A stretch of DNA of 35,090 bases, from the IMG/VR virus record IMGVR_UViG_3300025066_000080, positions 1-35,090 of that record; one strand, written 5' to 3'. Shown here piece after piece: positions 1-35,090 of the stretch. The notes beneath the pieces were generated by a model. It ran no database searches. It saw only the letters and a program-made list of their open reading frames with translations, and was not told the DNA's origin. How positions within the stretch are numbered: the stretch's first letter is position 1; each line of letters opens with the position of its first letter. The stretch is from a virus. Taxonomy: Duplodnaviria; Caudoviricetes. A program made the translations under genes and the position numbers.

Positions 1-127
1 AGACTGTCATAAGAAGTGTGGACATTCTAGAGAAGAAGAAAAGAAGTACGCACAAATTACTATTCGCTTTCATTTAAGGGAGAAGAATAAATTAGAAAAA
101 GAGGATATTGAGTTTTATCAGGATAAT
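1..127 (+). repeat. Exact 127-bp direct repeat, copy 1 (copy 2 at 34293-34419)
   Basis: Base-by-base identity from agactgtcat to caggataat. First mismatch is 128(a) vs 34420(g). Diverged homology continues to ~690 / ~34985. Confidence 0.97.
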
Positions 128-148
128 ATGTTATTATATCAGGTATGA
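1..148 (+). CDS. 3' end of the HNH endonuclease gene (full copy at 34138-34440)
   Basis: Same sequence as the 3' half of ORF 34138..34440, ending in the ATGA overlap with the next gene. Confidence 0.8.
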   Translation, partial: DCHKKCGHSREEEKKYAQITIRFHLREKNKLEKEDIEFYQDNMLLYQV

Positions 149-339
149 AAGATGAAATAATAAGAGGCTTAAAAAAAGACGGCAAATTTATAATAGATGG
201 AGTAGGAGTATTTGAATTATTGCCACGAAGACAAGGAAAAACATTTTGTGGTTTTAGGAATATGGAAGGAACGCCAAGATTTTCAAAAAGAGTTCGTTTT
301 ACTAGCTCACTTAAATTTAGAAACGAAATATGCAAATAG
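145..339 (+). CDS. Small HU/IHF-like DNA-binding protein (allele A)
   Basis: IDGVGVFEL..R.GK...RVRFTSSLKFR resembles the HU beta-arm (I.GFG.F....R.....P.F.P...LK). The second allele at 34437 is conserved at protein level with mostly synonymous changes. Confidence 0.6.
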   Translation: MKDEIIRGLKKDGKFIIDGVGVFELLPRRQGKTFCGFRNMEGTPRFSKRVRFTSSLKFRNEICK

Positions 340-848
340 ATTTAATAAAAGAGAACGACCAAAACCCTCGTTTGATTAAAGAGGACGCTTTCAATAAATT
401 AGTTGAGTCTATTAAAGAAGATCCCCAAATGCTAGAAGCTCGACCTCTTGTTATAGATGAGAACAATGTAGTGCTTGGTGGGAATATGCGCCTAAAAGCC
501 CTGAAGCACCTAGAGTATAAAGATGTACCTGTTTATAAGGTTGAGGGCTGGACCGAAGAACAAAAACGCAGATTTATAATCAAAGACAATCTATCAGGAG
601 GACAATGGGATTACGATATACTTACATCTGAATATGACGCAGAAGAACTATCAGATTGGGGTATGGAAAACTTAGATAAATATTTGATTGAAGATTCAGA
701 GGAATTAATTGCCGAACCAACAGACAAACCTTTAACTATACAAATCTCTTTTAAAGATAGAGATGAATTGTATGAAGCTAAAGTAGAGATTGAGGGTATT
801 TTAGGTAAATATAATGCCAATCTCTCTGTTTCTGGTGGAGAACTATGA
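330..848 (+). CDS. ParB/Sulfiredoxin N-terminal domain protein (stand-alone allele)
   Basis: NPR.I, L.ESI, RPLVIDE...LGGN.RL.A and ..DN motifs are typical of phage ParB-like proteins found next to terminase and DNA modifiers. Confidence 0.85.
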   Translation: MQIDLIKENDQNPRLIKEDAFNKLVESIKEDPQMLEARPLVIDENNVVLGGNMRLKALKHLEYKDVPVYKVEGWTEEQKRRFIIKDNLSGGQWDYDILTSEYDAEELSDWGMENLDKYLIEDSEELIAEPTDKPLTIQISFKDRDELYEAKVEIEGILGKYNANLSVSGGEL

Positions 849-1423
849 TTTTATATCCAGCAACAAAAAAAGCAGTTCATTATGCAGTTAGAAACTATCA
901 TTATAGTCAAAAAGCCTCTGCAAGATGTTTTGATGTTGCTTTTTCCGTTTTTAATGACAAAAAAGAGTTCTGTGGAGTAATCTGTTATGGGAGAGGTGCA
1001 AATCCAAAGATTGCTTCACCTTATGGATTAAAACAAGGAGAGGTTTTGGAGTTACTAAGAGTTGCACTTAATGGAAAACAAGAAAGCACTTCTAAAGCAA
1101 TATCCATTTCGATTAAACTTTTGAAAAAGGCGAGTCCACTAACAAAAATATTAGTTTCCTATGCAGATAAGGGCCAGAACCATATAGGTATAATATATCA
1201 GGCAACTAATTGGATTTTTGAGACAGAATCAGAAAGTTCTGGATATGAGTACTATAAAGATGGAAAATGGTGGCACTCAAAATCACTTGCAAGATTTGAT
1301 AGGGCGAAAATGGAAAAGAGAAAAATGTCTGGAAAATATAAGTATATATATCCCTTATCAAAAGATATGTTATTATTATGTAAGGAGAGGGGAAAACCTT
1401 ATCCAAAAGCGAATATAGTGTAA
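845..1423 (+). CDS. mom: Mom-family adenine modification enzyme (GNAT-like fold)
   Basis: NYHYS, GVICYG, LELLRVAL, VSYADxxQxHxGIIYQATNWIF and C-terminal KYKYIYPL...PYPK match my recollection of phage Mu Mom homologues. Confidence 0.8.
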   Translation: MILYPATKKAVHYAVRNYHYSQKASARCFDVAFSVFNDKKEFCGVICYGRGANPKIASPYGLKQGEVLELLRVALNGKQESTSKAISISIKLLKKASPLTKILVSYADKGQNHIGIIYQATNWIFETESESSGYEYYKDGKWWHSKSLARFDRAKMEKRKMSGKYKYIYPLSKDMLLLCKERGKPYPKANIV

Positions 1424-1482
1424 TTGGTTATCACGCTCTGCTTCCAGTAGAGAGAAAGAGGTTCAAATCCTACTTATTCGCA
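1409..1482 (+). tRNA. tRNA-Gly(TCC)-like gene with a non-canonical T-stem, overlapping the mom stop codon
   Basis: Cloverleaf: acceptor GCGAATA/TATTCGC, D-arm GTG..CAC with GG, anticodon arm CTCTG-CTTCCAG-TAGAG, T-arm AGAGG-TTCAAAT-CCT(A)CT with a bulged A. Discriminator A; no encoded CCA. Confidence 0.82.
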
Positions 1483-1484
1483 CA

Positions 1485-1823
1485 ATGGCTGATAAAACAG
1501 ATAAAAAACAGAATAAAGACCACCTATTCAAAAAAGGGCAATCTGGTAATCCTAACGGAAGACCTCTTGGGGCTAAGAATTTTACTACTCTCTTTAAAGA
1601 AGCTGTGAAAAAGATTGCAGAAGACACAGGTATTGCTCCAGATGAAATTGAAAAGGACTTAATTATTAAAGGGATTACTGAAGCTAAAAAAGGGAAGTAC
1701 CAGTATCATAAAGATATATTTGACCGAGTATATGGGAAACCCCAAGAAAAGGTTGATATTACGACAAAAGGGGAACAGGTTACTGCAATTAATTATATAA
1801 TTCCAGATGGAAATAAACCTTAA
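1485..1823 (+). CDS. terS: Terminase small subunit (DUF5681-like N-terminus)
   Basis: FKKGQSGNPNGRP motif and DRVYGKP..KVD motif; lies immediately upstream of TerL. Confidence 0.8.
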   Translation: MADKTDKKQNKDHLFKKGQSGNPNGRPLGAKNFTTLFKEAVKKIAEDTGIAPDEIEKDLIIKGITEAKKGKYQYHKDIFDRVYGKPQEKVDITTKGEQVTAINYIIPDGNKP

Positions 1824-3225
1824 ACCAACACCTAAACAACATGAAGCCTACGAGGCTCTGAAAGATAAGGGGAGTCGCTTTGTTGTCTTTGGTGGTGCTG
1901 CTGGAGGTGGTAAATCGTGGTTAGCTTGTGAGTGGATACTAACTATGTGTGTGGCTTATCCCAACACACGTTGGTTTATCGCCAGAAACGAACTAACCAG
2001 ACTAATGGCTTCAACATATGTAACCTTTGGGAAGGTGGCTAAGTGGCATAATGTTGGTGGCTGGGCTTTAAATGGTGGTTATCACTATATTGAATTTAAG
2101 AATGGATCTAGGATTGACCTTATTGATGTTAGAAAAAACCCATCTGATCCCATGTTTGAGAGGTATGGTTCTACTGAATACACTGGTGGAGTACTGGAGG
2201 AGGCAGGAGAGATTGATTTCGGTGCTTTTGATGTTCTTAAATCTCGTGTTGGTAGACACATGAACAAGGACTACAATATTGACCCCAAGATTCTTATTAC
2301 ATGTAATCCCAAAAAGAACTGGTTATATAATTATGTATACAAACCATTTACCGAGGGCAAACTAGAAAAGGAGTTCAGATTTATTCAGAGTTTCTATAAA
2401 GATAATCCATACACGGCTGATACATACGAACAGCAGTTGAAATCTATTAAGGATAAGACTATGAAGGAAAGGCTTTTGTATGGTAACTGGGAATATGAGA
2501 ATAACCCACTAGCATTGATTGAGTATGACGCAATTACAGATATGTTTACTAATACTGTTGATGAATTTGAGGACAAGTTTATGTCTATTGATGTTGCTCG
2601 TTATGGAAGTGATAAGACTGTCTTGATGGTTTGGCAAGGCTTTAGATGTAAAAAGATAGAGTCTTACACAAAGACAGGGCTAGATGTTTTGGCAGAAGAA
2701 ATTAAAAGAATAGCTAAGGAAGAGAGAATACCCTTCAGCAAGATAGTTATTGATGAAGATGGTGTAGGAGGTGGTCTTGTGGATATGCTAAGGGGGTGTA
2801 GAGGATTTATGGCAAACAGGACTCCGTTTAATAACAAGCTAACAGGTAAGCCAGACAACTTTCAGAACCTGAAGACTCAGTGTACTTTCCTATTAGCCGA
2901 CTTCATTAATGACCATAAGATTGCGATAGATTGTGAAGATGAGGATATAAAAAACAACCTAATATCAGAACTAGAAGTTATTCGGCAAAAAGAAGGGGTT
3001 TATGATAGTAAACTCCAGATAGAAAGCAAAGATAAAATAAAGGAGATACTGGGTCACTCTCCTGACTTCTCTGATGCACTGATGATGAGAATGTTCTTTG
3101 AATTACAAAGACCTTTAAAACAAATTGCTGCGGTAGATCCTATTAATACTATGTTAGGGAGGTCTTATCTGAAGGCTAAAAACCCTAATACTGGAGGAGC
3201 AGATAACAATGATGATTATTTATAA
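1807..3225 (+). CDS. terL: Terminase large subunit
   Basis: PTPKQ, Walker A GGAAGGGKS, Walker B-like VLEEAGE, coupling motif TCNP, nuclease motifs SIDVARYGSD and SPDFSDAL. Confidence 0.95.
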   Translation: MEINLKPTPKQHEAYEALKDKGSRFVVFGGAAGGGKSWLACEWILTMCVAYPNTRWFIARNELTRLMASTYVTFGKVAKWHNVGGWALNGGYHYIEFKNGSRIDLIDVRKNPSDPMFERYGSTEYTGGVLEEAGEIDFGAFDVLKSRVGRHMNKDYNIDPKILITCNPKKNWLYNYVYKPFTEGKLEKEFRFIQSFYKDNPYTADTYEQQLKSIKDKTMKERLLYGNWEYENNPLALIEYDAITDMFTNTVDEFEDKFMSIDVARYGSDKTVLMVWQGFRCKKIESYTKTGLDVLAEEIKRIAKEERIPFSKIVIDEDGVGGGLVDMLRGCRGFMANRTPFNNKLTGKPDNFQNLKTQCTFLLADFINDHKIAIDCEDEDIKNNLISELEVIRQKEGVYDSKLQIESKDKIKEILGHSPDFSDALMMRMFFELQRPLKQIAAVDPINTMLGRSYLKAKNPNTGGADNNDDYL

Positions 3226-7751: not shown

Positions 7752-7944
7752 AAGTGAATTAAAGAGTTTGTGTGAGAAAGAGATTAATAAGTCTAAGATT
7801 ATGATTGCTTTCTATACTGATAGAGCCAGCAAAATGGATGATGAGAAAGATAAGGAAGAAAAGGCAAAGAATCTAATGAAAGCAAAGCAGTTACAGGAGA
7901 ACCAAGACTTTAATCAGGAACTCTATGACTTCATCGGGGAATAA
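7729..7944 (+). CDS. Hypothetical protein
   Basis: 71-aa charged helical ORF overlapping both neighbours. Confidence 0.6.
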   Translation: MTTEKQAKSELKSLCEKEINKSKIMIAFYTDRASKMDDEKDKEEKAKNLMKAKQLQENQDFNQELYDFIGE

Positions 7945-8752
7945 CATAGTCGGCTATGGAATTTGTGGTCCAAATGAGAAGTATCTTGATAAAACTCTTA
8001 AGTGCTTTGATTCTCTTTGCGATACTGTCGTTCTGCTTACTAATAATACCGATCCTGATAGCGTACGAAAGATTAGAGAGATGGGATTTGAAGTTAGAGA
8101 AGACAACAGAGAGTGGGGGCTGAACCAGAACAAGATTAAAGAAGATTTTGTGTCTACTTTAGGAGAATATAATCCTGATTGGCTTGTTTGCTTGGATATG
8201 GATGAGGTGTTACACGTGGAACGAGAAGAATTGGAACAAATGATGACCAAATGTAACTCTATGAGTGTCTACATTGTTAATTTGTGGGAGAAGGGGTGGA
8301 AAAGGAGGTGGAGCTTCTGGAATGTGAGGGTCTGGAAGTGGAATGGGGTGACTAAGTTCGCTAATAGACCACTACATTGTGGATTAGCCCCTGAATGGGC
8401 GTACCACTACGCTTCTGCTGTACCAATACCTTTAATTCACAGGGGTCTGAAAGATAGAGAAGCACGCCAGAGAAAGATAGCACGCTATAAAAAATACGAT
8501 CCAACCGCAAAGTATAGAGATAAGAGCTATTATGACGCTCTAGCAGATGATACTTACGAAGAATATGACCTAGAAAAGATACAGGAATCACTAGATGAGG
8601 AGATCAGGGAAGTAGTAATGAAACAACCACGAGATATAAGGGATAAGAAGTTCTATATAGTTGAAAGTCCTGATGGTAGACAAATGGACATACCAGAGGC
8701 AAGCCTAGAGGAGACTCTAAAGAGAGGATTTAAGTTGATAAATGAGATATGA
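7925..8752 (+). CDS. Glycosyltransferase, GT-A fold (GT2-like)
   Basis: NEKYL..TL, DWLVCLDMDE (DxD motif), LIHRG...R.RK..RY. Confidence 0.8.
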   Translation: MTSSGNNIVGYGICGPNEKYLDKTLKCFDSLCDTVVLLTNNTDPDSVRKIREMGFEVREDNREWGLNQNKIKEDFVSTLGEYNPDWLVCLDMDEVLHVEREELEQMMTKCNSMSVYIVNLWEKGWKRRWSFWNVRVWKWNGVTKFANRPLHCGLAPEWAYHYASAVPIPLIHRGLKDREARQRKIARYKKYDPTAKYRDKSYYDALADDTYEEYDLEKIQESLDEEIREVVMKQPRDIRDKKFYIVESPDGRQMDIPEASLEETLKRGFKLINEI

Positions 8753-9615
8753 GAATAGTTTATATAGGAAATTTTGATTATATGTGGGACGAGGAGCATG
8801 TTGCTAGATGTTTTGAGAAATTAGGACACGAGGTAATGAGAGTTCCTGAGAAAAAACCCATGAGGGTTATAGTACCTGCTATACTAGAATTTAAACCTGA
8901 TTTTGTATTGTGGGCTAAATTGAGAGTTGGTAGACCAAGTGAGATAATCAGAATTTGTAAAGAGAACAATATAAAAACAGTCTGCTGGATATGGGATTTG
9001 TATTTTGGTTATCAGAGAGAACATCAGATTAAGAACAATAATATGTTCAAGGCTGATCTGGTTTTTACCTCTGATGATGGGCATGAAGAAGACTGGAAGG
9101 AACATGGAATTGCACATAAGTGTATTAGACAGGGAATCTACGATGAAGAAGCTGTCTTACTACCCACAGAAGAAAAAGAACATGATGTTGTCTTTGTTGG
9201 ATCTGAAAATCCCTTGAATGAAGACAGAACAAAACTCTTTAAAGACTTTGATTTTAAGTGGTTTGGAAAGAAAGATACTAATGAAGTTAGAGGAATGAGA
9301 CTGAATGAATTATATACTAAGACAAAGATAGTAATTGGAGATTCGGTGTATTCTCCGCACTATTGGAGTAATAGGGTTGTTGAAACGCTTGGTCGGGGTG
9401 GTTTTTTGATTCATCAGGAAGTAGAGGGGCTTAAAGAAGCCTATCCTCACCTTGTTACGTACAAGAGGGGAGATTATAAAGACTTAAAAGAAAAAATAGC
9501 GTATTATTTAGGTAATGATAAGGAGCGAGAAGAGATTATAAAAAAGAATTATGAGTGGGTGCTAGACAATCACTTGTGTTCACTTAAATGTAAAGAATTA
9601 TGCAAAAACCTGTAA
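8749..9615 (+). CDS. Glycosyltransferase, GT-B fold (CgeB / Glyco_trans_1_2-like)
   Basis: DVVFVGS, LY.KTKIVIG, YWSNRVVETLGRGGFLI, L.EKI.YYL....RE.I...HL. Confidence 0.85.
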   Translation: MRIVYIGNFDYMWDEEHVARCFEKLGHEVMRVPEKKPMRVIVPAILEFKPDFVLWAKLRVGRPSEIIRICKENNIKTVCWIWDLYFGYQREHQIKNNNMFKADLVFTSDDGHEEDWKEHGIAHKCIRQGIYDEEAVLLPTEEKEHDVVFVGSENPLNEDRTKLFKDFDFKWFGKKDTNEVRGMRLNELYTKTKIVIGDSVYSPHYWSNRVVETLGRGGFLIHQEVEGLKEAYPHLVTYKRGDYKDLKEKIAYYLGNDKEREEIIKKNYEWVLDNHLCSLKCKELCKNL

Positions 9616-10073
9616 ACAAAGAAGAGTTTTGGAGAGAAAGATTAAACAATTCAGCTAAACTAGAGCATTCTGTATATATTACAAGTGAGAAGGACTGGAA
9701 TTTCATTAATAAAACCCATCTAGAGTTGTTAATGCCATATCAGTACAAGAAAGTTCTAGATGCTGGTTGTGGTTATGGTAGATGGTCTGAACTCTTTTCT
9801 GATTACACTGGAACAGACTTCTCATCAGACTTTATTAATAAAGCTATCGAGTTACACCCAGACAAAAAGTTCGTTAAGGCAAACATGAAAAAATTGCCAT
9901 TTAAAGATGATGAGTTTGATTTGTCATTCTGTGTATCTATTAAAGATATGATAGTAGACAATCTTGGAGAAGTAGAGTGGGCTAAGATGTTTGAAGAACT
10001 GAAGCGAGTATCAAAAAAAGTCATGATATTGGAGTACACTAACCCAGATGAATATGAAGTTCATATTAAATAA
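9600..10073 (+). CDS. Class I SAM-dependent methyltransferase
   Basis: VLDAGCGYG, GTDFS, LPFKDDEFDL, ELKRV motifs. Confidence 0.9.
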   Translation: MQKPVNKEEFWRERLNNSAKLEHSVYITSEKDWNFINKTHLELLMPYQYKKVLDAGCGYGRWSELFSDYTGTDFSSDFINKAIELHPDKKFVKANMKKLPFKDDEFDLSFCVSIKDMIVDNLGEVEWAKMFEELKRVSKKVMILEYTNPDEYEVHIK

Positions 10074-10332
10074 AAAAGACTATCTTGAGTACAGAAAGGG
10101 CATGAATAATACTGTGGAGATTTTAGATATCGCAGTTTATTCTGAAAGAAATAAAGGTACAGGAACTAATCTATTAAAGATGTTGGAGAATGAGGATCTT
10201 GGACACATCTATGCCTTCACCAGAGAGAGTAATGAATTGGCACAAGGATTCTACAAGAAGAATGGTTTTAGGGGAACTCTACTACCTAATTTCTATCCAG
10301 ATGAGAGTGCAATTGTATATATAAAATCATGA
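10048..10332 (+). CDS. GNAT-family acetyltransferase (minimal)
   Basis: IAV...RNKGTGT.LL acetyl-CoA motif A and N..AQGFYKKNGF motif B. Confidence 0.85.
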   Translation: MNMKFILNKKDYLEYRKGMNNTVEILDIAVYSERNKGTGTNLLKMLENEDLGHIYAFTRESNELAQGFYKKNGFRGTLLPNFYPDESAIVYIKS

Positions 10333-11240
10333 CAGGTTCAATAGTATTAGCAACAGAACAAGGGTTGGGGTATCTAGCAAAAGCCTTCTATGATAACGGA
10401 ATTATAGACAAAATCGCCATTCACCCTCACTCTACAAGGAAAAGTCATACAGAATGGTATCCAGACGCAGTGAGTGTGTCTGAATTACTTGAGTGTGACA
10501 CTATTTTGTTCTTTGAAACACCTTTTGATCTAGATTTTATGAAGGAAGCAAAAGCAAAGGGTATTAAGATTGTCTTCATGCCAATGTATGAATGTTCTAA
10601 TCCTAGGATAGTAGAAATGGCGGATGTAATCATTAATCCATCAGACTTAGACCAAGAGTATTATCCTGATGGTATCAGACTGAATGTTCCTGTTGATGTT
10701 AAGTGGCGAAAACGCTCCGTAGCAAAGGTTTTTGTGCATAATGCAGGTAATGGTGGATTAGGTGGTAGAAATGGCACTACGGAGCTTCTGAAGGCAATGA
10801 AGCATGTAAAATCCCCTATCAAACTAATTGTTAGAAGCCAAATGCCCATTAAACAGATAGATGACCCAAGAATCGAATATAGGATAGGGCAGTTTGATGA
10901 TATTTGGGCAGAAGGAGATGTCTTTGTTTTTCCAGAGAAGTTTAATGGTTTATCACTTCCAGCACAGGAAGCATATGCAAGTGGAATGGTCGTGATGTCT
11001 GGAGATCGCTTTCCCATGAACACTTGGCTACCGAAAGAACACCTAATACCAGTTAAAGGGACGACAAAAGAGAGATTAGCTGTACTAATTGATGTAGCAG
11101 AGTTTTCCCCAGTTGATATCGCAAAGAGTATTGATAATATTTATGGCAAGAGTATAATAATAACATCAGAACAAGGAAGAGAGTGGGCAGAGCAGAACTC
11201 ATGGGAAGTATTAGCACCTAAATATAAAGAATTATTATGA
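10329..11240 (+). CDS. Glycosyltransferase, GT-B fold (GT4-like)
   Basis: DVFVFPEKFNGLSLPAQEAYASGMVV (variant EX7E motif); C-terminal SW.....Y. Confidence 0.85.
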   Translation: MTGSIVLATEQGLGYLAKAFYDNGIIDKIAIHPHSTRKSHTEWYPDAVSVSELLECDTILFFETPFDLDFMKEAKAKGIKIVFMPMYECSNPRIVEMADVIINPSDLDQEYYPDGIRLNVPVDVKWRKRSVAKVFVHNAGNGGLGGRNGTTELLKAMKHVKSPIKLIVRSQMPIKQIDDPRIEYRIGQFDDIWAEGDVFVFPEKFNGLSLPAQEAYASGMVVMSGDRFPMNTWLPKEHLIPVKGTTKERLAVLIDVAEFSPVDIAKSIDNIYGKSIIITSEQGREWAEQNSWEVLAPKYKELL

Positions 11241-12223
11241 AAACAGCACTGATCACTGGTTTGACTGGACAAGACGGAAGTTATTTAGCAGAACTCTTGA
11301 TTGAAAAGGGCTATGAAGTTCATGGAATTGTTAGAAGGGCTTCAACCTTTAATAGAGAGAGAATAGACCATTTAGATATACAGCAAAACCTTCATTATGG
11401 AGACATGACTGACTTTGCTTCCTTGATTAAGATAATTACAGAGGTTCAGCCAGATGAGATCTATAATCTAGCTGCACAATCTCATGTAGCTGTTTCTTTT
11501 GATACACCACAATATACAGGACAAGTTGACGCAATAGGAACTCTTAATTTACTGGAGGCGGTACGTATTGTTGATAAGAACATTAAGATATACCAAGCTT
11601 CTACATCAGAAATGTTTGCTGGGAATGTTGAGGACTGTCCATACAATGAGGATAGTAAGTTTAGTCCCAAGAGTCCTTATGGAGTGGCTAAGTTGTATTC
11701 ATATGAGTTGTGCAGAATCTATAAAGAGAGTTACGGGATGTTTATCGCTAGTGGAATCTTATTTAATCACGAATCAGAGAGGCGAGGTGAGAACTTTGTA
11801 ACCAGAAAGATTACAAAAGGAATCGCAGACATTCTTCATGGAAAAACCACTACTATTAAACTTGGTAATATCACAGCAGAGAGGGATTGGGGACACGCCA
11901 AAGACTACGTGAAAGCAATGTGGTTAATGCTTCAGCAACCTGAACCAAAGAACTATGTAATCGCCACAGGTGAGAGTTATTCTGTCATTGATTTCGTTAG
12001 AAAAGCTTTCAACATTGCGAACAGGTTGTATGGGTCAGATCTATCAGTTGAAAAACATATCGAGAGTGATAGTGAGTTTATGCGACCCAATGAGGTTCAA
12101 ACACTTCTGGGAGATAGTTCAAGGGCAAGAGATGAACTGGATTGGCAACCAGAGATAGATTTTGAGAGATTAATAACTTTAATGGTTAAAAATGACTATG
12201 AAAATACCAGTAAGCAAGCCTAG
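11237..12223 (+). CDS. gmd: GDP-mannose 4,6-dehydratase
   Basis: ALITGLTGQDGSYLAE, YNLAAQSHV, YQASTSE, SPYGVAK, LFNHES.RRG..FVTRKI, RDWGHAKDYV. Confidence 0.97.
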   Translation: MKTALITGLTGQDGSYLAELLIEKGYEVHGIVRRASTFNRERIDHLDIQQNLHYGDMTDFASLIKIITEVQPDEIYNLAAQSHVAVSFDTPQYTGQVDAIGTLNLLEAVRIVDKNIKIYQASTSEMFAGNVEDCPYNEDSKFSPKSPYGVAKLYSYELCRIYKESYGMFIASGILFNHESERRGENFVTRKITKGIADILHGKTTTIKLGNITAERDWGHAKDYVKAMWLMLQQPEPKNYVIATGESYSVIDFVRKAFNIANRLYGSDLSVEKHIESDSEFMRPNEVQTLLGDSSRARDELDWQPEIDFERLITLMVKNDYENTSKQA

Positions 12224-13247
12224 TTTAACAGGCAACGAGGCAAAATATGTAAATGAAACTATTATAACTAACTGGATCTCCAGTAAGGGTGAGTTTGTTG
12301 ATGAATTTGAGAGAGAGTGGGCTAAATATAACAAAGTTAAATATGGAGTAGCTTGTTCGTCTGGAACTTCAGCACTTGTACTCGCATTAAAAGCCTGTGG
12401 TGTAAAAGAAGGAGACGAGGTTATCGTCCCTGAGTTTACGATGGTTGCAACTGCTTGGGCGGTTACTTATGTTGGAGCAAAACCCGTATTTGTTGATTGC
12501 GATGATACTCTAAATATAAATCCTGATTTAATTAAAGATAAGATAACAAACAAGACTAAAGCCATTATCCCCGTATCAATCTATGGTAGAAAATATAGCA
12601 GGAAGGTATTAAAGGTTATTAGGGAGCATAGGAAAAAGATTTGGGTGATTGAGGATCTTGCCGAGGCACACGGAACAAAGGTTCGTGGGGATATTGCCTG
12701 TTATTCATTGTTTGGGAATAAGATAATCACCTCTGGAGAAGGTGGAATCTGCCTAACTAATGACAAGAAACTAGCAGAGCTTATGAAATGGTATGGAGCT
12801 ATGTGTTTTAATGAAAGCCACACTTTTATCCACCCAGATATAGGATACAATTTTAGAATGACCGCCATGCAAGGTGCGGTAGCTCTGGCACAGGTTGAAA
12901 GATTTGATGAGATTATAGAAAAGCGAAAGCAGATAGAGAAATGGTATAACGCTAACTTGCCAAGAAAGGTTAAGATGCCCAAAAGAGATGTACTGTGGAT
13001 GTATGATATTAATGTTGGAAAAAAACAGGGTATGGTCACCAAGCTTTTGAAGGAGAGAGGTATTGAAACAAGACACTTCTTTAAACCTATGAGCCAACAG
13101 CCTATGTATAATTATAAGAATTACAGGTACACAAATGCCTTCAAATGGGCTTATCAAGGAATATATTTACCTACATATACAGATATGACAGAAGAAGATG
13201 TGATATTTGTTTGCGATAACCTGAAAGAGGTACTTGCTATGGTATAA
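12192..13247 (+). CDS. DegT/DnrJ/EryC1/StrS PLP aminotransferase, GDP-perosamine synthase-like (start probably 12198)
   Basis: WISS.G.FV, SSGTSAL, IEDLAEAHG, SLFGNKIITSGEGG, GYNFRMT, LPT; adjacent to gmd as per/rfbE usually is. Confidence 0.9.
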   Translation: MTMKIPVSKPSLTGNEAKYVNETIITNWISSKGEFVDEFEREWAKYNKVKYGVACSSGTSALVLALKACGVKEGDEVIVPEFTMVATAWAVTYVGAKPVFVDCDDTLNINPDLIKDKITNKTKAIIPVSIYGRKYSRKVLKVIREHRKKIWVIEDLAEAHGTKVRGDIACYSLFGNKIITSGEGGICLTNDKKLAELMKWYGAMCFNESHTFIHPDIGYNFRMTAMQGAVALAQVERFDEIIEKRKQIEKWYNANLPRKVKMPKRDVLWMYDINVGKKQGMVTKLLKERGIETRHFFKPMSQQPMYNYKNYRYTNAFKWAYQGIYLPTYTDMTEEDVIFVCDNLKEVLAMV

Positions 13248-26818: not shown

Positions 26819-27850
26819 ATGCAAAATTTTACAGGAGCAGTAGAAGATCCACGACCCAAAAAAGAGAAAAAGAAAGATTGGAAAGCAGAGGAATTGGCAA
26901 GTGCATTTAATCCTGAATGGAAAGAAAAAAAGAAATGGCTATCTTTTACATCAAGAAATCAAAAAAGAACATCTAGCTGTGTTCCCCAGTCTGTATCTAA
27001 GATATTAGAAGCTAACGAAAAAAGAGAGAACGGAAAAAAGGTTATATTCTCCGCATCAAAAGCCTACGCAGATAGAAGTAACTCAGGTGCAGGTTCATAT
27101 TTACAAGAAATGCTAAAATATGCAGTTGATGATAGATACACTCTAGAGAACAGAATCAAATCTCAAAATCTTACTTCTGATAATGCTATGGAAGAACTTG
27201 CAAGAAGCTGGAGCAAGGAAGATACAAAAATTGCTAAGAAGTATTCTGGTAAATCTTATTTGATGGTAAATTCGACTAAGATTGATGAGATAGCTCACTG
27301 GATTGAACAAGGTCAAGTTGTTTCTTGTCTTTTCTACTTTACTTCAAAAGAATGGGGACAGAAATATCCAAAAATTCTTAATAAAGGACTAAGAAAAGGT
27401 TCTGCTCTAAGACATGCTGTTGCTATAACGGACTTTGGATTGATCAGAGGAAAAAAATATCTAAAGATTGAGGATTCTGCCCACTTCGGTGGTAGAGATG
27501 AGAGATGGGTCTCAGAAGAATTTCTAACTAAAAGAACCTTTGGTGCTGGGTTTGTATATGATAAGCCTAATAAGGATGTAGATATACCCGTAATTGACCC
27601 AAAATGGCGATTTAAGAGCAATTTATGGCTAGGTATGAGGAATTACCCAGATGTTGTAAAAATGCAGGATATACTCAAACAAGAAGGGTTCTTCCCACTA
27701 CATATTCCCTCAACAGGAAATTATCTAGAAATAACTCGTAGGGCTGTTGAGAAGTACCAACGACACCATGAATTAGCATCTATTTGGGAACTAAATGCTG
27801 TAAGAGGAAAGATTGTTGGACCTAAAACACGAAGACAACTTAATGCTTAA
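26819..27850 (+). CDS. Putative endolysin: papain-like (C1-type) cysteine peptidase + C-terminal peptidoglycan-binding domain
   Basis: NQ..TSSCV (Gln/Cys), HAV (His), IEDS; DV..MQ..L..EGF...TG.Y...T..AV..YQ...G.IVGP.TR..LN. Confidence 0.75.
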   Translation: MQNFTGAVEDPRPKKEKKKDWKAEELASAFNPEWKEKKKWLSFTSRNQKRTSSCVPQSVSKILEANEKRENGKKVIFSASKAYADRSNSGAGSYLQEMLKYAVDDRYTLENRIKSQNLTSDNAMEELARSWSKEDTKIAKKYSGKSYLMVNSTKIDEIAHWIEQGQVVSCLFYFTSKEWGQKYPKILNKGLRKGSALRHAVAITDFGLIRGKKYLKIEDSAHFGGRDERWVSEEFLTKRTFGAGFVYDKPNKDVDIPVIDPKWRFKSNLWLGMRNYPDVVKMQDILKQEGFFPLHIPSTGNYLEITRRAVEKYQRHHELASIWELNAVRGKIVGPKTRRQLNA

Positions 27851-28744: not shown

Positions 28745-29010
28745 TGATCGCTGTATCAACAAGGAAGATGAGGAAGCAAGCAAGAAAGCAACCCCGCAAG
28801 AACATTCATCACAGGAGACCGAAAGCTCAAGGAGGATCAAATCGTCCAGAAAATCTGAGTGTTGTCGATACAGAAAGACATTCACTTTGGACTCAGATGT
28901 TCGATGGAACTATGACACCAAAAGAGATCATAGACGATATCAACAACAAATGGATTGATGAAAGGTATATGGTTGTTTTGATAGAAAGGAGGTCGGGAAA
29001 TGCAATATGA
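28744..29010 (+). CDS. Small HNH-motif protein
   Basis: HHRRPKAQGGSN..ENL....RH is an HNH core without Cys. Confidence 0.7.
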   Translation: MIAVSTRKMRKQARKQPRKNIHHRRPKAQGGSNRPENLSVVDTERHSLWTQMFDGTMTPKEIIDDINNKWIDERYMVVLIERRSGNAI

Positions 29011-29098
29011 TATGTTTTTACCAAACTGGATTCAGTTAGAGCTGGATTTCGTTAATGCTCCGTTTGATAGTTTATTCTGTTATGCGATACGGGGATAG
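29000..29098 (+). CDS. 32-aa peptide (not in the ORF track)
   Basis: AAGGAGGT SD upstream; MQYDMFLPNWIQLELDFVNAPFDSLFCYAIRG*. Confidence 0.45.
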   Translation: MQYDMFLPNWIQLELDFVNAPFDSLFCYAIRG

Positions 29099-29107
29099 GA
29101 GGTTCGT

Positions 29108-29155
29108 ATGTTAATCATCCTTATTTCTGTGACAATTGCATACTTAATTTGCTAA
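29108..29155 (+). CDS. 15-aa hydrophobic peptide (not in the ORF track)
   Basis: AGGAGGT SD upstream; MLIILISVTIAYLIC*; directly before a terminator. Confidence 0.4.
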   Translation: MLIILISVTIAYLIC

Positions 29156-29165
29156 TTGTTTAAGG

Positions 29166-29196
29166 GGAGGGTGGTAAATTGCCACCCTCCTTTTTC
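29166..29196 (+). terminator. Rho-independent terminator
   Basis: GGAGGGTGG-TAAATTG-CCACCCTCC-TTTTT. Confidence 0.9.
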
Positions 29197-29229
29197 TCTT
29201 GTTTGTATGTTACAATTTTAGTATACACC

Positions 29230-29340
29230 ATGATTAATCATCTAATTAAAACAGCCTGTATACTCTTTGGTACAGTTCTACTACTGTTATTAATTAGCTT
29301 TATAGGGTGGGCGGTAGGTGCTATACTTGAGGTAGGTTAG
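29230..29340 (+). CDS. 36-aa single-pass membrane peptide (not in the ORF track)
   Basis: MINHLIKTACILFGTVLLLLLISFIGWAVGAILEVG*; TGTTACAAT at 29208-29216. Confidence 0.5.
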   Translation: MINHLIKTACILFGTVLLLLLISFIGWAVGAILEVG

Positions 29341-29848
29341 TGGGTTGATGGGGGAGCGGTGTAAGACCAAGAGAGGACAGCATTATTTAACCTCTTGGCA
29401 GTAGGTAATCAATCCTAACCGAATGCCTACCCACCAACTCATTAACAACTTAGTTAGCTTTCAAAGATGAAAGCATACTAAAATAGAAGATAGTAGCGAG
29501 GTGTGGCGGAATAGAGAACGCACAATAAGTTTCAATAATACTTTATTATATAAAGGGCTAGAAACTGAATAATCTAAACTGTAAGGTGACTATACGAGTG
29601 GTACTTAGTAAACAACTAATCGTGGTGGCGAGACTCCACCAGTATCTCGTCAAATCCTTGCCACCTCACTACTGTCCTTTATACAACTTGAGTCCTAGAG
29701 GCAAACGTTTATTCGTTTGTAATGTTTTGGAAGGGCAGACAGTCTTTAAATAGACTTGTGCCTCTAGGACTTGAGTATTGGTGGGGGTGTGGGTTAAATC
29801 ACTTAAATATGTGGAACTTAAATGAAGCATATCCCCACCAGCACTTAA
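29336..29848 (+). ncRNA. Array of four long-stemmed, branched structured RNA domains (one tRNA-derived)
   Basis: Closing stems of 15-18 bp at 29336/29446, 29489/29676, 29686/29776 and 29771/29848. Most imperfect pairs are G-U on the + strand. No ORF of 60 aa or more. Confidence 0.65.
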
Positions 29849-29855
29849 CTTTTAA

Positions 29856-29962
29856 TTAAAAACAACACCAATCAAGGTGTTGCCAACCGCTAAGGTTTAT
29901 TTAAATTTAAATTCAAATGTTTTTGTGACCGCAAATCCCTACGGAGTGGATCAACCACTACT
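29856..29962 (-). ncRNA. Candidate ~105-nt leftward small RNA
   Basis: Minus-strand TTGCAA(29997-29992)-17 nt-TATAAT(29974-29969) promoter and minus-strand terminator CAACACC-TTGATT-GGTGTTG-TTTTT (29882-29858). Confidence 0.55.
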
Positions 29963-29998
29963 CTTATTATTATATACTTCTGTTATTATAATTGCAAG

Positions 29999-30018
29999 TT
30001 ATCCCCAACTTATACACA
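29999..30018. promoter_or_regulatory. Tandem DnaA-box-like sites between divergent promoters (candidate origin)
   Basis: TTATCCCCA (29999-30007) and TTATACACA (30010-30018) in a very AT-rich tract. Confidence 0.5.
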
Positions 30019-30024
30019 TTTTAA

Positions 30025-30060
30025 TTTACTTTTTTTATCTATTAGGTATATAATACACAC
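30025..30060 (+). promoter_or_regulatory. Sigma70-type promoter
   Basis: TTTACT (30025-30030) - 18 nt - TATAAT (30049-30054). Confidence 0.55.
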
Positions 30061-30135
30061 ATGAACAATACAGATACAGCAGAAGTATATTTTGTAACAA
30101 AGTGTGTTTCTGCTGTATTGTTCAAATCAGGCATT

Positions 30136-30168
30136 AAGACTTCCTTTTATTAGGAGGTCTTTTTGTTT
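30136..30168 (+). terminator. Rho-independent terminator
   Basis: AAGACTTCCT-TTTATT-AGGAGGTCTT-TTTGTTT. Confidence 0.8.
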
Positions 30169-30400
30169 GTATGTCTGTGGGGAGTTCAAATTAGAAATGC
30201 AGACAATAAACTATAATTTCTAAACCTGTCGCCTGTATCTCGGCGTTGGAAGAGATACCTTTATACCGACAAAGTTTGTCAGATATTGATTCACTTGGCA
30301 CTTTACCTTTAAACCTGTTATTTACTTAACGGGGATAAAGGGGAAGTACCTGAGAATCTTTACCCGACAAACATAGGTTTAGATATAAATAACAATAACT

Positions 30401-34137: not shown

Positions 34138-34440
34138 ATGAAATTAAAAAACCCATTCAAAGACGTAGTAAGAAATCTGTATCTATACCAGTATAATTGT
34201 CAGGATTGTGGTAGATCAGATAGGGGGTTGGAACTTCATCACATAATCGGCAGGAAATCCAACTCTAAACTTAATGCAATAGTTTTATGTTTAGACTGTC
34301 ATAAGAAGTGTGGACATTCTAGAGAAGAAGAAAAGAAGTACGCACAAATTACTATTCGCTTTCATTTAAGGGAGAAGAATAAATTAGAAAAAGAGGATAT
34401 TGAGTTTTATCAGGATAATGTGTTATTATATCAAGTATGA
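34138..34440 (+). CDS. HNH endonuclease
   Basis: CQDCG, LELHHI, N..VLCLDCH...H. Confidence 0.88.
   Translation: MKLKNPFKDVVRNLYLYQYNCQDCGRSDRGLELHHIIGRKSNSKLNAIVLCLDCHKKCGHSREEEKKYAQITIRFHLREKNKLEKEDIEFYQDNVLLYQV
34293..34419 (+). repeat. Exact 127-bp direct repeat, copy 2
   Basis: Identical to 1-127. Confidence 0.97.
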
Positions 34441-34631
34441 AAGATGAAATAATAAGTGGTCTAAAAAGAGATGGAAAATTCGTAATAGATGGTGTGGGAG
34501 TGTTTGAGTTATTACCTAGAAGAAAAGGAAAAACATTTTGTGGTTTTAGAAATACGGAGGGAACGCCACGATTCTCCAAAAGGGTTAAATTCACCAGCTC
34601 ATTAAAACTAAGAAACGAAATATGCAAATAA
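34437..34631 (+). CDS. Small HU/IHF-like protein (allele B)
   Basis: Near-identical protein to 145..339 with many third-position changes. Confidence 0.6.
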   Translation: MKDEIISGLKRDGKFVIDGVGVFELLPRRKGKTFCGFRNTEGTPRFSKRVKFTSSLKLRNEICK

Positions 34632-35090
34632 GTTTAATAAAGGAAAACGACCAAAATCCACGCTTAATCAAAGAAGAGGCGTTTGAAAAGCTTGTTAGCT
34701 CTATTAAAGAAGACCCACAGATGTTGGAAGCCCGCCCATTGATTATAGATGAGAATAATATTGTATTAGGGGGAAATATGAGGTTAAAGGCACTAAAACA
34801 TCTAAAGTATGAGGATGTACCAGTTTATCAGGTAAAGGACTGGACTAAGGAACAGAAACACCGATTTATAGTAAAGGATAATCTGTCAGGTGGTGAATGG
34901 GACTATGATCTACTGACAGCACAGTATGACGCAGAAGAACTATCAAACTGGGGCATGGAAGGCTTAGATAAATACTTTATAGAAGAGCCAGATGAAAAAG
35001 ATGACGAAGTACCAGAGGTGGTGGGTGAACCGAAGAGTAAACTTGGTGATATTTATGAGTTGGGAGAACACCGAGTATTGTGTGGTGATA
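34622..35090 (+). CDS. ParB-domain protein probably fused to a DNA N4/N6-methyltransferase (truncated by the window end)
   Basis: Hand translation: MQISLIKENDQNPRLIK... homologous to 330..848 up to LDKY.IE, then DEVPEV..EPKSKLGDIYELGEHRVLCGD, the usual linker into the MTase domain of ParB-MTase fusions. Confidence 0.8.
   Translation, partial: MQISLIKENDQNPRLIKEEAFEKLVSSIKEDPQMLEARPLIIDENNIVLGGNMRLKALKHLKYEDVPVYQVKDWTKEQKHRFIVKDNLSGGEWDYDLLTAQYDAEELSNWGMEGLDKYFIEEPDEKDDEVPEVVGEPKSKLGDIYELGEHRVLCGD

Follow-up and report, generated by a model that had tools for sequence, protein, structure and literature searches.

The Mom protein of phage Mu moves glycine from Gly-tRNAGly onto the N6 of adenine in double-stranded DNA, and the production of N6-carbamoylmethyl-deoxyadenosine (N6-carbamoylmethyl-dA) is established for Mu Mom and for two mined homologues (PMC13219725). 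According to the same report, Mu Mom takes all three E. coli tRNA-Gly isoacceptors and refuses Gly-tRNAAla, the acceptor end alone is proposed to be what the enzyme reads on the tRNA, and this use of tRNA-Gly is presented as scavenging of the host pool; the available part of the report mentions no phage-encoded partner RNA. Here we describe a mom-family gene that is overlapped at its 3' end by a gene for a tRNA-Gly-like RNA, in the virus record IMGVR_UViG_3300025066_000080. The window, meaning the whole stretch of DNA that was analysed (35,090 nt), represents a small tailed-phage genome.

Two other described systems resemble this locus in part. The ssrA islands of Dehalococcoides contain parB and mom together with a conserved 76-bp tRNA-Gly-like 'pseudo-tRNA' with anticodon DCC (PMC3146451, 2011); that element lies inside the first 150 bp of the mom homologue in genomic islands, whereas the window RNA lies at the mom 3' end, and the accessible portion of the 2011 report proposes no function for it. 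Staphylococci have non-proteinogenic tRNA-Gly that serve as glycine carriers for the GNAT-fold FemXAB enzymes of cell-wall synthesis (PMC7826273, PMC12256121, PMC3239215), are encoded in chromosomal clusters, and have T-stems that are weak but paired, with A49-U65 and A51-U63, a 6-bp anticodon stem and TGC T-loops (PMC7826273). The parts of the present arrangement are known, and the proximity of mom and tRNA-Gly is known to have been remarked on once, in that 2011 report. In the literature covered, that outside subscription journals, no proposal of a Mom-dedicated tRNA was found beyond this remark, and neither the reading of the RNA as a dedicated donor nor a bulged T-stem as its signature nor the C-A/U-A end was met with there.

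The Mom protein and the overlapping RNA

The 192-aa product of the open reading frame at 845..1423 (plus strand) is a Mom-family protein that has no counterpart of one residue essential in Mu. It matches the Pfam Mom family PF25680 over positions 6-202 of the 202-position profile (E 2e-36, 126 bits, cut-off 27.1), phrog_1384 (E 8e-44) and, by sequence, the Mu Mom chain of PDB 8bv8 (E 1.2e-9). Its AlphaFold model (predicted local distance difference test, 89.7) has Mu Mom as its best Foldseek match (8bv8_B/A; E 1.7e-13, template modelling score 0.74), with the next GNAT at 3e-5. The Mom-like assignment made in the preliminary description of this locus is borne out by these searches, and the use of Gly-tRNA by Mom, which that description mentioned as background, is in print for Mu Mom (PMC13219725). 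The window protein has its family and fold in common with Mu Mom (PF25680; 8bv8; PMC13219725, bioRxiv 10.1101/2023.03.24.534169). Residue correspondence was read off the 8bv8 alignment, with the numbering offset by hand: Mu H58, Y59, R111, S124, D149, Y159 and W181 map to H19, Y20, R72, S83, D108, Y118 and W142 of the window Mom, so that 7/8 of the key Mu residues mapped are kept, the catalytic R111 and S124 included. Among 26 homologues H19, Y20, R72, D108 and Y118 are invariant and S83 is nearly so. The window Mom subfamily differs from Mu in having G for R151 and a shorter insertion; in the window model this insertion is a hairpin plus a short helix (about residues 133-160), which may correspond to the helix-turn-helix-like insertion of Mu (about 175-209). 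By analogy with Mu, the protein is a predicted adenine N6 glycyltransferase that would make N6-carbamoylmethyl-dA from Gly-tRNAGly.

The tRNA-Gly-like RNA gene occupies 1409..1482 on the plus strand. It is the sole tRNA called by ARAGORN in the window (tRNA-Gly(TCC), 1409-1483) and the sole Rfam match there at gathering score (RF00005, 1409-1482, 49 bits), and the family covariance model described below, R1, scores it at 76 bits. Its first base, G1 (1409), is the first base of mom codon 189, and the RNA covers the last four codons and the stop, an overlap of 15 nt. This agrees with the earlier placement of the only tRNA of the genome within the last mom codons; the word 'fused' used for it fits insofar as the two genes overlap, but they are not fused, and the RNA stands on the opposite strand in 25 of 133 related loci.

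The cloverleaf comprises an acceptor stem (1409-1415/1475-1481), a D stem (1418-1420/1432-1434), an anticodon stem (1436-1440/1448-1452) with the Gly anticodon UCC at 1443..1445, and a T-stem (1457-1461/1469-1474), all on the plus strand. Bacterial glycyl-tRNA synthetase (GlyRS) recognizes glycine tRNAs by G1-C72, C2-G71, C35-C36 and U73 (PMC9976931). The window RNA has G1-C72, C2-G71, C35 and C36 within the cloverleaf and G3-C70 besides, in accordance with the anticodon and acceptor end first reported for it, and its anticodon loop has 7 nt with U33. It was also reported as an intact cloverleaf, of which the cloverleaf itself stands while its canonical character does not: the anticodon loop is closed by C32-G38, an A at 1472 bulges from the T-stem on its 3' side, separating pairs 50-64 and 51-63 in the EF-Tu contact region, pair 51-63 is A-U, the discriminator (1482) is A73 in place of the bacterial U73, and the encoded 3' end at 1483..1485 reads CAA in place of CCA and shares its final A with the ATG of terS, the gene for a terminase small subunit-like protein. 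The EF-Tu pairs of the T-stem are 49-65, 50-64 and 51-63 (PMC7826273, PMC12256121, PMC3239215); summed by hand from the published EF-Tu pair table, with the bulge ignored, those of the window RNA (A49-U65, G50-C64, A51-U63) come to +0.6 kcal/mol, equal to the S. aureus set. A single-strand fold in silico gave an alternative hairpin at -20.7 kcal/mol (z -2.8) against -13.4 for the cloverleaf, and the cloverleaf therefore rests on covariation among homologues. The window RNA is not a canonical tRNA-Gly; by its sequence features it looks like a non-proteinogenic one.

Linkage and anatomy of the RNA family

Mom and the RNA form a conserved enzyme-plus-RNA module, which was approached from the protein and from the RNA. 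For the protein-first sample, relatives of Mom with 38-100% identity were taken at 80 viral loci, two of which are the window phage itself. Default ARAGORN found a tRNA in 24 of these 80, each with its first base between -11 and +41 nt relative to where the Mom match ends. A covariance model was built from 39 RNAs of the 80 loci with no T-stem pairs imposed, and the counts were taken from it because a heuristic cloverleaf finder gave false calls (its 'other' and 'n5' classes). By this model the RNA lies at the mom end in 55/80 viral loci, a count that is partly circular as these loci were the source of the training set, in 71/80 metagenomic loci, which were outside the training set though some sequences are shared, and in 10/35 genome loci, three weak matches elsewhere being set aside. 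The RNA is nearly always within tens of bases of the conserved Mom C-terminal motif.

The RNA-first searches used two DNA patterns taken from RNAs linked to mom, and certain contigs occur more than once; the results are therefore not entirely independent. Neither pattern held anticodon or protein information. Pattern 1 was the bulged T-arm plus the acceptor 3' strand; among its 103 viral matches, the 80 with long flanks had Mom adjacent in 79 and C35-C36 in the same 79, and the 23 with 300-base flanks had a partial Mom in 11. Pattern 2, the 4-bp stem form, gave at least 120 viral matches, with Mom adjacent in 78 of 80 examined (on the opposite strand in 64 of the 78, both misses ending at a contig edge) and C35-C36 in 80/80. 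Collapsed at 90%, Mom adjoined the RNA in 25/26 cases for pattern 1 and 26/26 for pattern 2. One pattern 1 match, L086, has its bulged tRNA-Gly-like RNA 5' of a distant Mom-like frame, as in the Dehalococcoides islands.

This linkage of tRNA-Gly to Mom homologues, which the preliminary description had left to be examined, is strong from both directions and absent from three controls. Among 80 of 120 viral tRNA-Gly chosen by D-arm and anticodon, 1/80 stood beside a Mom, and that one carried the bulged A. Neither Mom nor the RNA was found at 59 other terL relatives (0/59) or at 25 other ParB(-methylase) loci (0/25), where a DPPY methylase frame was present in 16/25; the idea that the RNA belongs to the terminase region was ruled out by these terL and ParB controls, several loci of which have short upstream flanks. 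Rfam searches of six loci at E up to 1 returned the generic tRNA family at the element in 3/6 and no dedicated family, a BLASTN search of cultured phages with the RNA found short weak matches only, and two loci of a second Mom subfamily had no relevant match in phages or plasmids.

The protein-first loci yielded 133 full-length RNAs (three truncated ones removed), reduced to 80 at 90%, which were compared with 37 non-redundant ordinary viral tRNA-Gly (two truncated ones removed). In the stems, 97-99% of cells are paired, 12-13/15 pairs have changed on both sides, and the covariation score is 0.74-0.95 against at most 0.18 in slid structures. The glycine identity set is retained almost throughout: G1-C72 and C2-G71 in 80/80, G3-C70 in 76/80, U73 in 77/80 and C35-C36 in 77/80, with base 34 free (U 61, A 15, G 1). 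Features of translating tRNAs are not. A canonical T-stem is found in none of the 80 RNAs (59 have a bulge and a normal loop, 21 an altered loop) but in 33/37 controls; the third base ahead of the acceptor 3' strand is A in 78/80 (controls 1/36), the tight G51-C63 pair occurs in 0/27 five-pair bulged stems (controls 25/32), and the EF-Tu T-stem pair energy averages +0.34 kcal/mol against -0.36 in controls. Positions 32-38 form a Watson-Crick pair in 74/77, namely C-G in 51/77 as against 0/34 controls (U-A in 12/34 controls); the anticodon loop has 8 nt in 33/77 and U33 in 44/77, and is fully canonical in 8/77 against 33/34. U33 and the anticodon were set by the pattern that selected the controls, so that these loop comparisons favour the control by construction, whereas the T-arm and 3'-end comparisons are unaffected. 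The encoded 3' end has C74 in 78/80, A or U at 75 in 64/80, C75 in 16/80 and A76 in 71/80, the last to be set against A in roughly 25-39/80 at positions 78-84. Near-identical RNAs adjoin Moms that are 24-28% identical (the 15 lowest pairs; 16/135 pairs below 40%), so that the RNA would serve more than one Mom subfamily.

The weak A49-U65 and A51-U63 pairs of the window RNA, and in the family the Watson-Crick 32-38 pair and the TGC T-loops of 11/80 RNAs, recall the staphylococcal tRNA-Gly. Unlike these, the RNAs described here are phage-borne and tied to an enzyme, have bulged T-stems and mostly a C-A/U-A end, and have DNA as the predicted acceptor; we treat the likeness as probably convergent and assign no membership.

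Relative to mom, 108 of the 133 RNAs are sense and 25 antisense; the mom frame is overlapped by or contains 83/108 of the sense copies and is overlapped by 23/25 of the antisense ones. TAnnTTTG, a Bacteroidota promoter motif (-7) (PMC6847099), lies within 35 nt upstream of 23/33 non-redundant antisense copies, mostly 10-12 nt off, in a count that pools protein-first and pattern loci (shuffled mean 1.7, maximum 6; sense copies 3/65). With a promoter motif of their own, the antisense copies resemble genes in their own right, and the sense copies are probably released from the mom transcript by cleavage; an RNase P cut at 1409 would also remove the mom stop codon from that transcript. Upstream of the window RNA there is no TAnnTTTG, and as a promoter scan of window positions 1-2200 gave 7 sites against 6.9 expected, no promoter is claimed for it. 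Among 23 sequencing runs, none of RNA was listed as containing the sequence, and reads of four DNA runs covered it in patches and showed no variants; neither result weighs either way.

A probable dedicated glycine donor and its alternatives

The pattern of kept and lost features fits a dedicated donor and parallels the staphylococcal Fem system. Judging from sequence features, the RNA probably acts as a translation-shielded glycine donor: host GlyRS would charge it with glycine, the broken T-stem would keep it off EF-Tu and the ribosome, and the charged RNA would deliver its glycine to Mom for attachment to the N6 of adenine in the DNA of the phage, whereby restriction enzymes would be blocked. 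The expression and processing of the RNA, its glycylation, its exclusion from EF-Tu and its use by Mom are what we infer in this explanation, and the chemistry from Gly-tRNA to N6-carbamoylmethyl-dA and the protection from restriction are taken from Mu by homology. The earlier suggestion of a self-contained system does not hold, as no phage synthetase was found, which would leave charging to the GlyRS of the host, and the RNA is lacking beside many Moms; its companion, that the RNA is not a translation supplement, agrees with a family that keeps charging identity and loses translation features.

Several observations weigh against a dedicated donor, among them the distribution of the RNA. Of 160 Mom proteins placed on a quick tree, 110 are accompanied by the RNA and 50 have none nearby, the latter mostly in clades whose records are host-associated or from Bacteroidota and Bacillota. 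Presence and absence alternate 9 times on the tree against 43 in shuffles, which indicates clustering only, since kin share labels. Of 25 viral records with RNA-less Moms, 23, mostly fragments, were searched whole and contained no such RNA, the two matches obtained being an ordinary tRNA-Ile and an ordinary tRNA-Val. Eleven cultured mom phages were examined out of 84 tblastn matches: the RNA is present in Arthrobacter Shade and Sicarius2, in Microbacterium Appa, MenE and Phonegingi (antisense in these three) and in Salinibacter B2_17, and 5/11 (phiEf11, FSL SP-031, P12002L, JeffCo and P16-2532) are without it. In Arthrobacter phages Shade (L541:2080-2153) and Sicarius2 (L638:1383-1456) we observed an unannotated tRNA-Gly-like gene across the mom stop codon. 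The T-stems of both are paired though weak, with a shrunken D-loop, and the bulge is therefore not universal. The Appavirus copies of Microbacterium phages have a tight normal T-stem, an encoded CCA and a G7.A66 mismatch only, and, being near-canonical, could translate. Appaviruses and Salinibacter phage B2_17 have the same order of mom (annotated as 'acetyltransferase') and then an annotated tRNA-Gly; the B2_17 RNA is of the bulged type (79 bits) as in the window, and the Appavirus copies, unlike the window RNA, are antisense as well as near-canonical.

The remaining objections concern the chemistry. The window copy has A73, found in 3/80 family RNAs; with this base, E. coli-type GlyRS charges about 11-fold less well, and the bacterial DTD deacylase favours it (PMC9908026), so that the EF-Tu-free Gly-RNA of the window would be exposed to this deacylase. 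CCA is encoded in 14/80 RNAs (controls 23/36), and E. coli GlyRS contacts C75 (PMC9908026). Three of the 80 RNAs fail the test for C35-C36 with its stem, two of them (L040, L224) without CC. On the enzyme, R151, which is essential in Mu Mom (PMC13219725), aligns to G110; the residue that follows, Q111, is invariant in the window Mom subfamily (26 homologues). Separately, RNAs without a CC anticodon (L040, L041, L062, L234, L224) stand near RNA-less Mom branches in the tree and are possibly caught in decay. As many Moms lack such an RNA we regard it as an accessory, and because Mu Mom and whole Mom clades do without it, it probably serves as a booster, by supplying Mom with glycine for which translation does not compete, and not as an essential subunit.

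In a further version of the donor reading, which we put forward tentatively and think doubtful, the mature RNA would keep its C-A-A or C-U-A end and be charged so, and would be doubly excluded from translation as a ribosome-orthogonal carrier for DNA modification. That the encoded end is retained is suggested by A76 in 71/80 and C74 in 78/80, yet C75 in 16/80. The peptidyl transferase centre pairs with base 75, and the double exclusion is proposed on account of the bulged EF-Tu site and the non-C at 75. On wild-type ribosomes, tRNAs engineered to C75G show no activity, while C75A/U analogues are disfavoured only 2-5-fold in a fragment assay (PMC4394545).

The same 3' end could also be read as preventing charging: the end is non-CCA in 66/80 RNAs, with a conserved C-A/U-A, the linkage is tight, and the acceptor end, the part that Mom is proposed to read, is the most conserved. 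An uncharged RNA might then act as a tRNA mimic that restrains Mom until late infection, as an inhibitor or timer comparable to an RNA antitoxin. C35-C36 is nonetheless kept in 77/80 RNAs while base 34 drifts, and since Mu Mom takes all isoacceptors and is proposed to read the acceptor end only, this conservation of the anticodon points to the synthetase. RNA-less Moms also occur without a visible substitute, and we consider inhibition unlikely.

The frequent overlap with the mom frame in both orientations, and the proximity to the Mom C-terminal motif, would be expected if the cloverleaf were a processing signal that cuts the mom-terS message, or an antisense RNA on the mom 3' end. A processing signal has no need of glycine identity, however, and both orientations keep the same identity set; the antisense copies have their own promoter motif, and the Dehalococcoides element is at the mom 5' end (PMC3146451). 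Such cis or antisense control is quite unlikely to be the function of the RNA, but an effect on processing may well be a side effect.

It is very unlikely that the RNA supplements translation as a normal phage tRNA-Gly, whether by replenishing what Mom drains from the pool or by decoding GGA. In favour of this, 22 window genes encode glycine most often by GGA (251/586), the window copy has its 7-nt loop with U33, and the Appavirus copies are near-canonical; against this stand the complete lack of canonical T-stems in the family, the rarity of fully canonical anticodon loops, both common in ordinary viral tRNA-Gly, and A34 in 15/77 RNAs. The reading as a decayed tRNA pseudogene or integration-site remnant accompanying mom, to which the degenerate D and T loops and the few copies without anticodon might point, is extremely improbable and already largely refuted by stems that stay paired through compensatory changes in 12-13/15 pairs, far over slid controls, by defects that recur at the same positions in a gene of full length, and by the absence of an integrase match among the 44 window proteins scanned against PHROGs.

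Genome context and wider meaning

Upstream of mom, a ParB-N-like gene (330..848, plus strand; phrog_620 ParB-like, E 4e-25; Pfam ParB_N E 7e-4, under its cut-off) overlaps the mom start with its stop. A parB is the usual gene 5' of mom, also in phiEf11, Shade, Appa, Sicarius2, MenE and Phonegingi, and likewise precedes mom in the Dehalococcoides islands (PMC3146451). Directly 3' of the RNA lies terS (1485..1823, plus strand; DUF5681, E 1e-9; phrog_2538 terS, E 5e-4), followed by terL (1807-3225); terS is context and stands outside the Mom/RNA module. In contig L003, an Rfam DUF805b motif (923-955, 45 bits) occurs about 2 kb upstream of mom.

The end of the window (34293-35090) repeats its start, with the first 127 bases identical and then 82.5% over 704 bases, and contig L002 connects position 34292 to 1; the genome is therefore likely a circle of ~34.3 kb, and the tail is likely a second allele. 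The ParB copy at 34622 does not end ahead of a mom but continues into sequence resembling the start of a ParB-adenine-methylase fusion, and a methylase may fill the Mom slot in this allele.

Elsewhere in the window, a sugar-modification cluster lies among structural genes at 7925-13247, with glycosyltransferase-like genes, an S-adenosylmethionine-dependent methyltransferase, a small GNAT, and a GDP-mannose 4,6-dehydratase and DegT aminotransferase that we presume by family to form a perosamine-type pathway; virion or surface glycosylation is possibly its role. A papain-like peptidase with a peptidoglycan-binding domain (26819-27850) is a likely endolysin. A 1.4-kb segment (29010-30400) without open reading frames of at least 70 aa has several G/C-rich inverted segments, by eye, and no Rfam match at gathering score; an origin or non-coding RNAs are possible there. 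Extended -10 motifs (TGnTATAAT; 3233, 6793, 13240, 16070 and 18115) stand a few bases 5' of several start codons, and a Shine-Dalgarno sequence is missing from most of 22 window genes (checked by eye), which suggests leaderless or short-leader messages, a pattern that may hint at a Patescibacteria-like host.

The dedicated-donor reading joins two things that were known separately, the use of charged tRNA-Gly by Mom and the existence of tRNAs that avoid translation. It also suggests that the bulge in the T-stem is an EF-Tu antideterminant that occurs in nature, and possibly that carriers without CCA do so too; either would be of use in designing orthogonal tRNAs. If this reading is true, a widespread class of phage 'tRNA-Gly' would consist of cofactor carriers for anti-restriction chemistry and not of translation aids, which would bear on the reasons for which small phages have lone tRNA genes.

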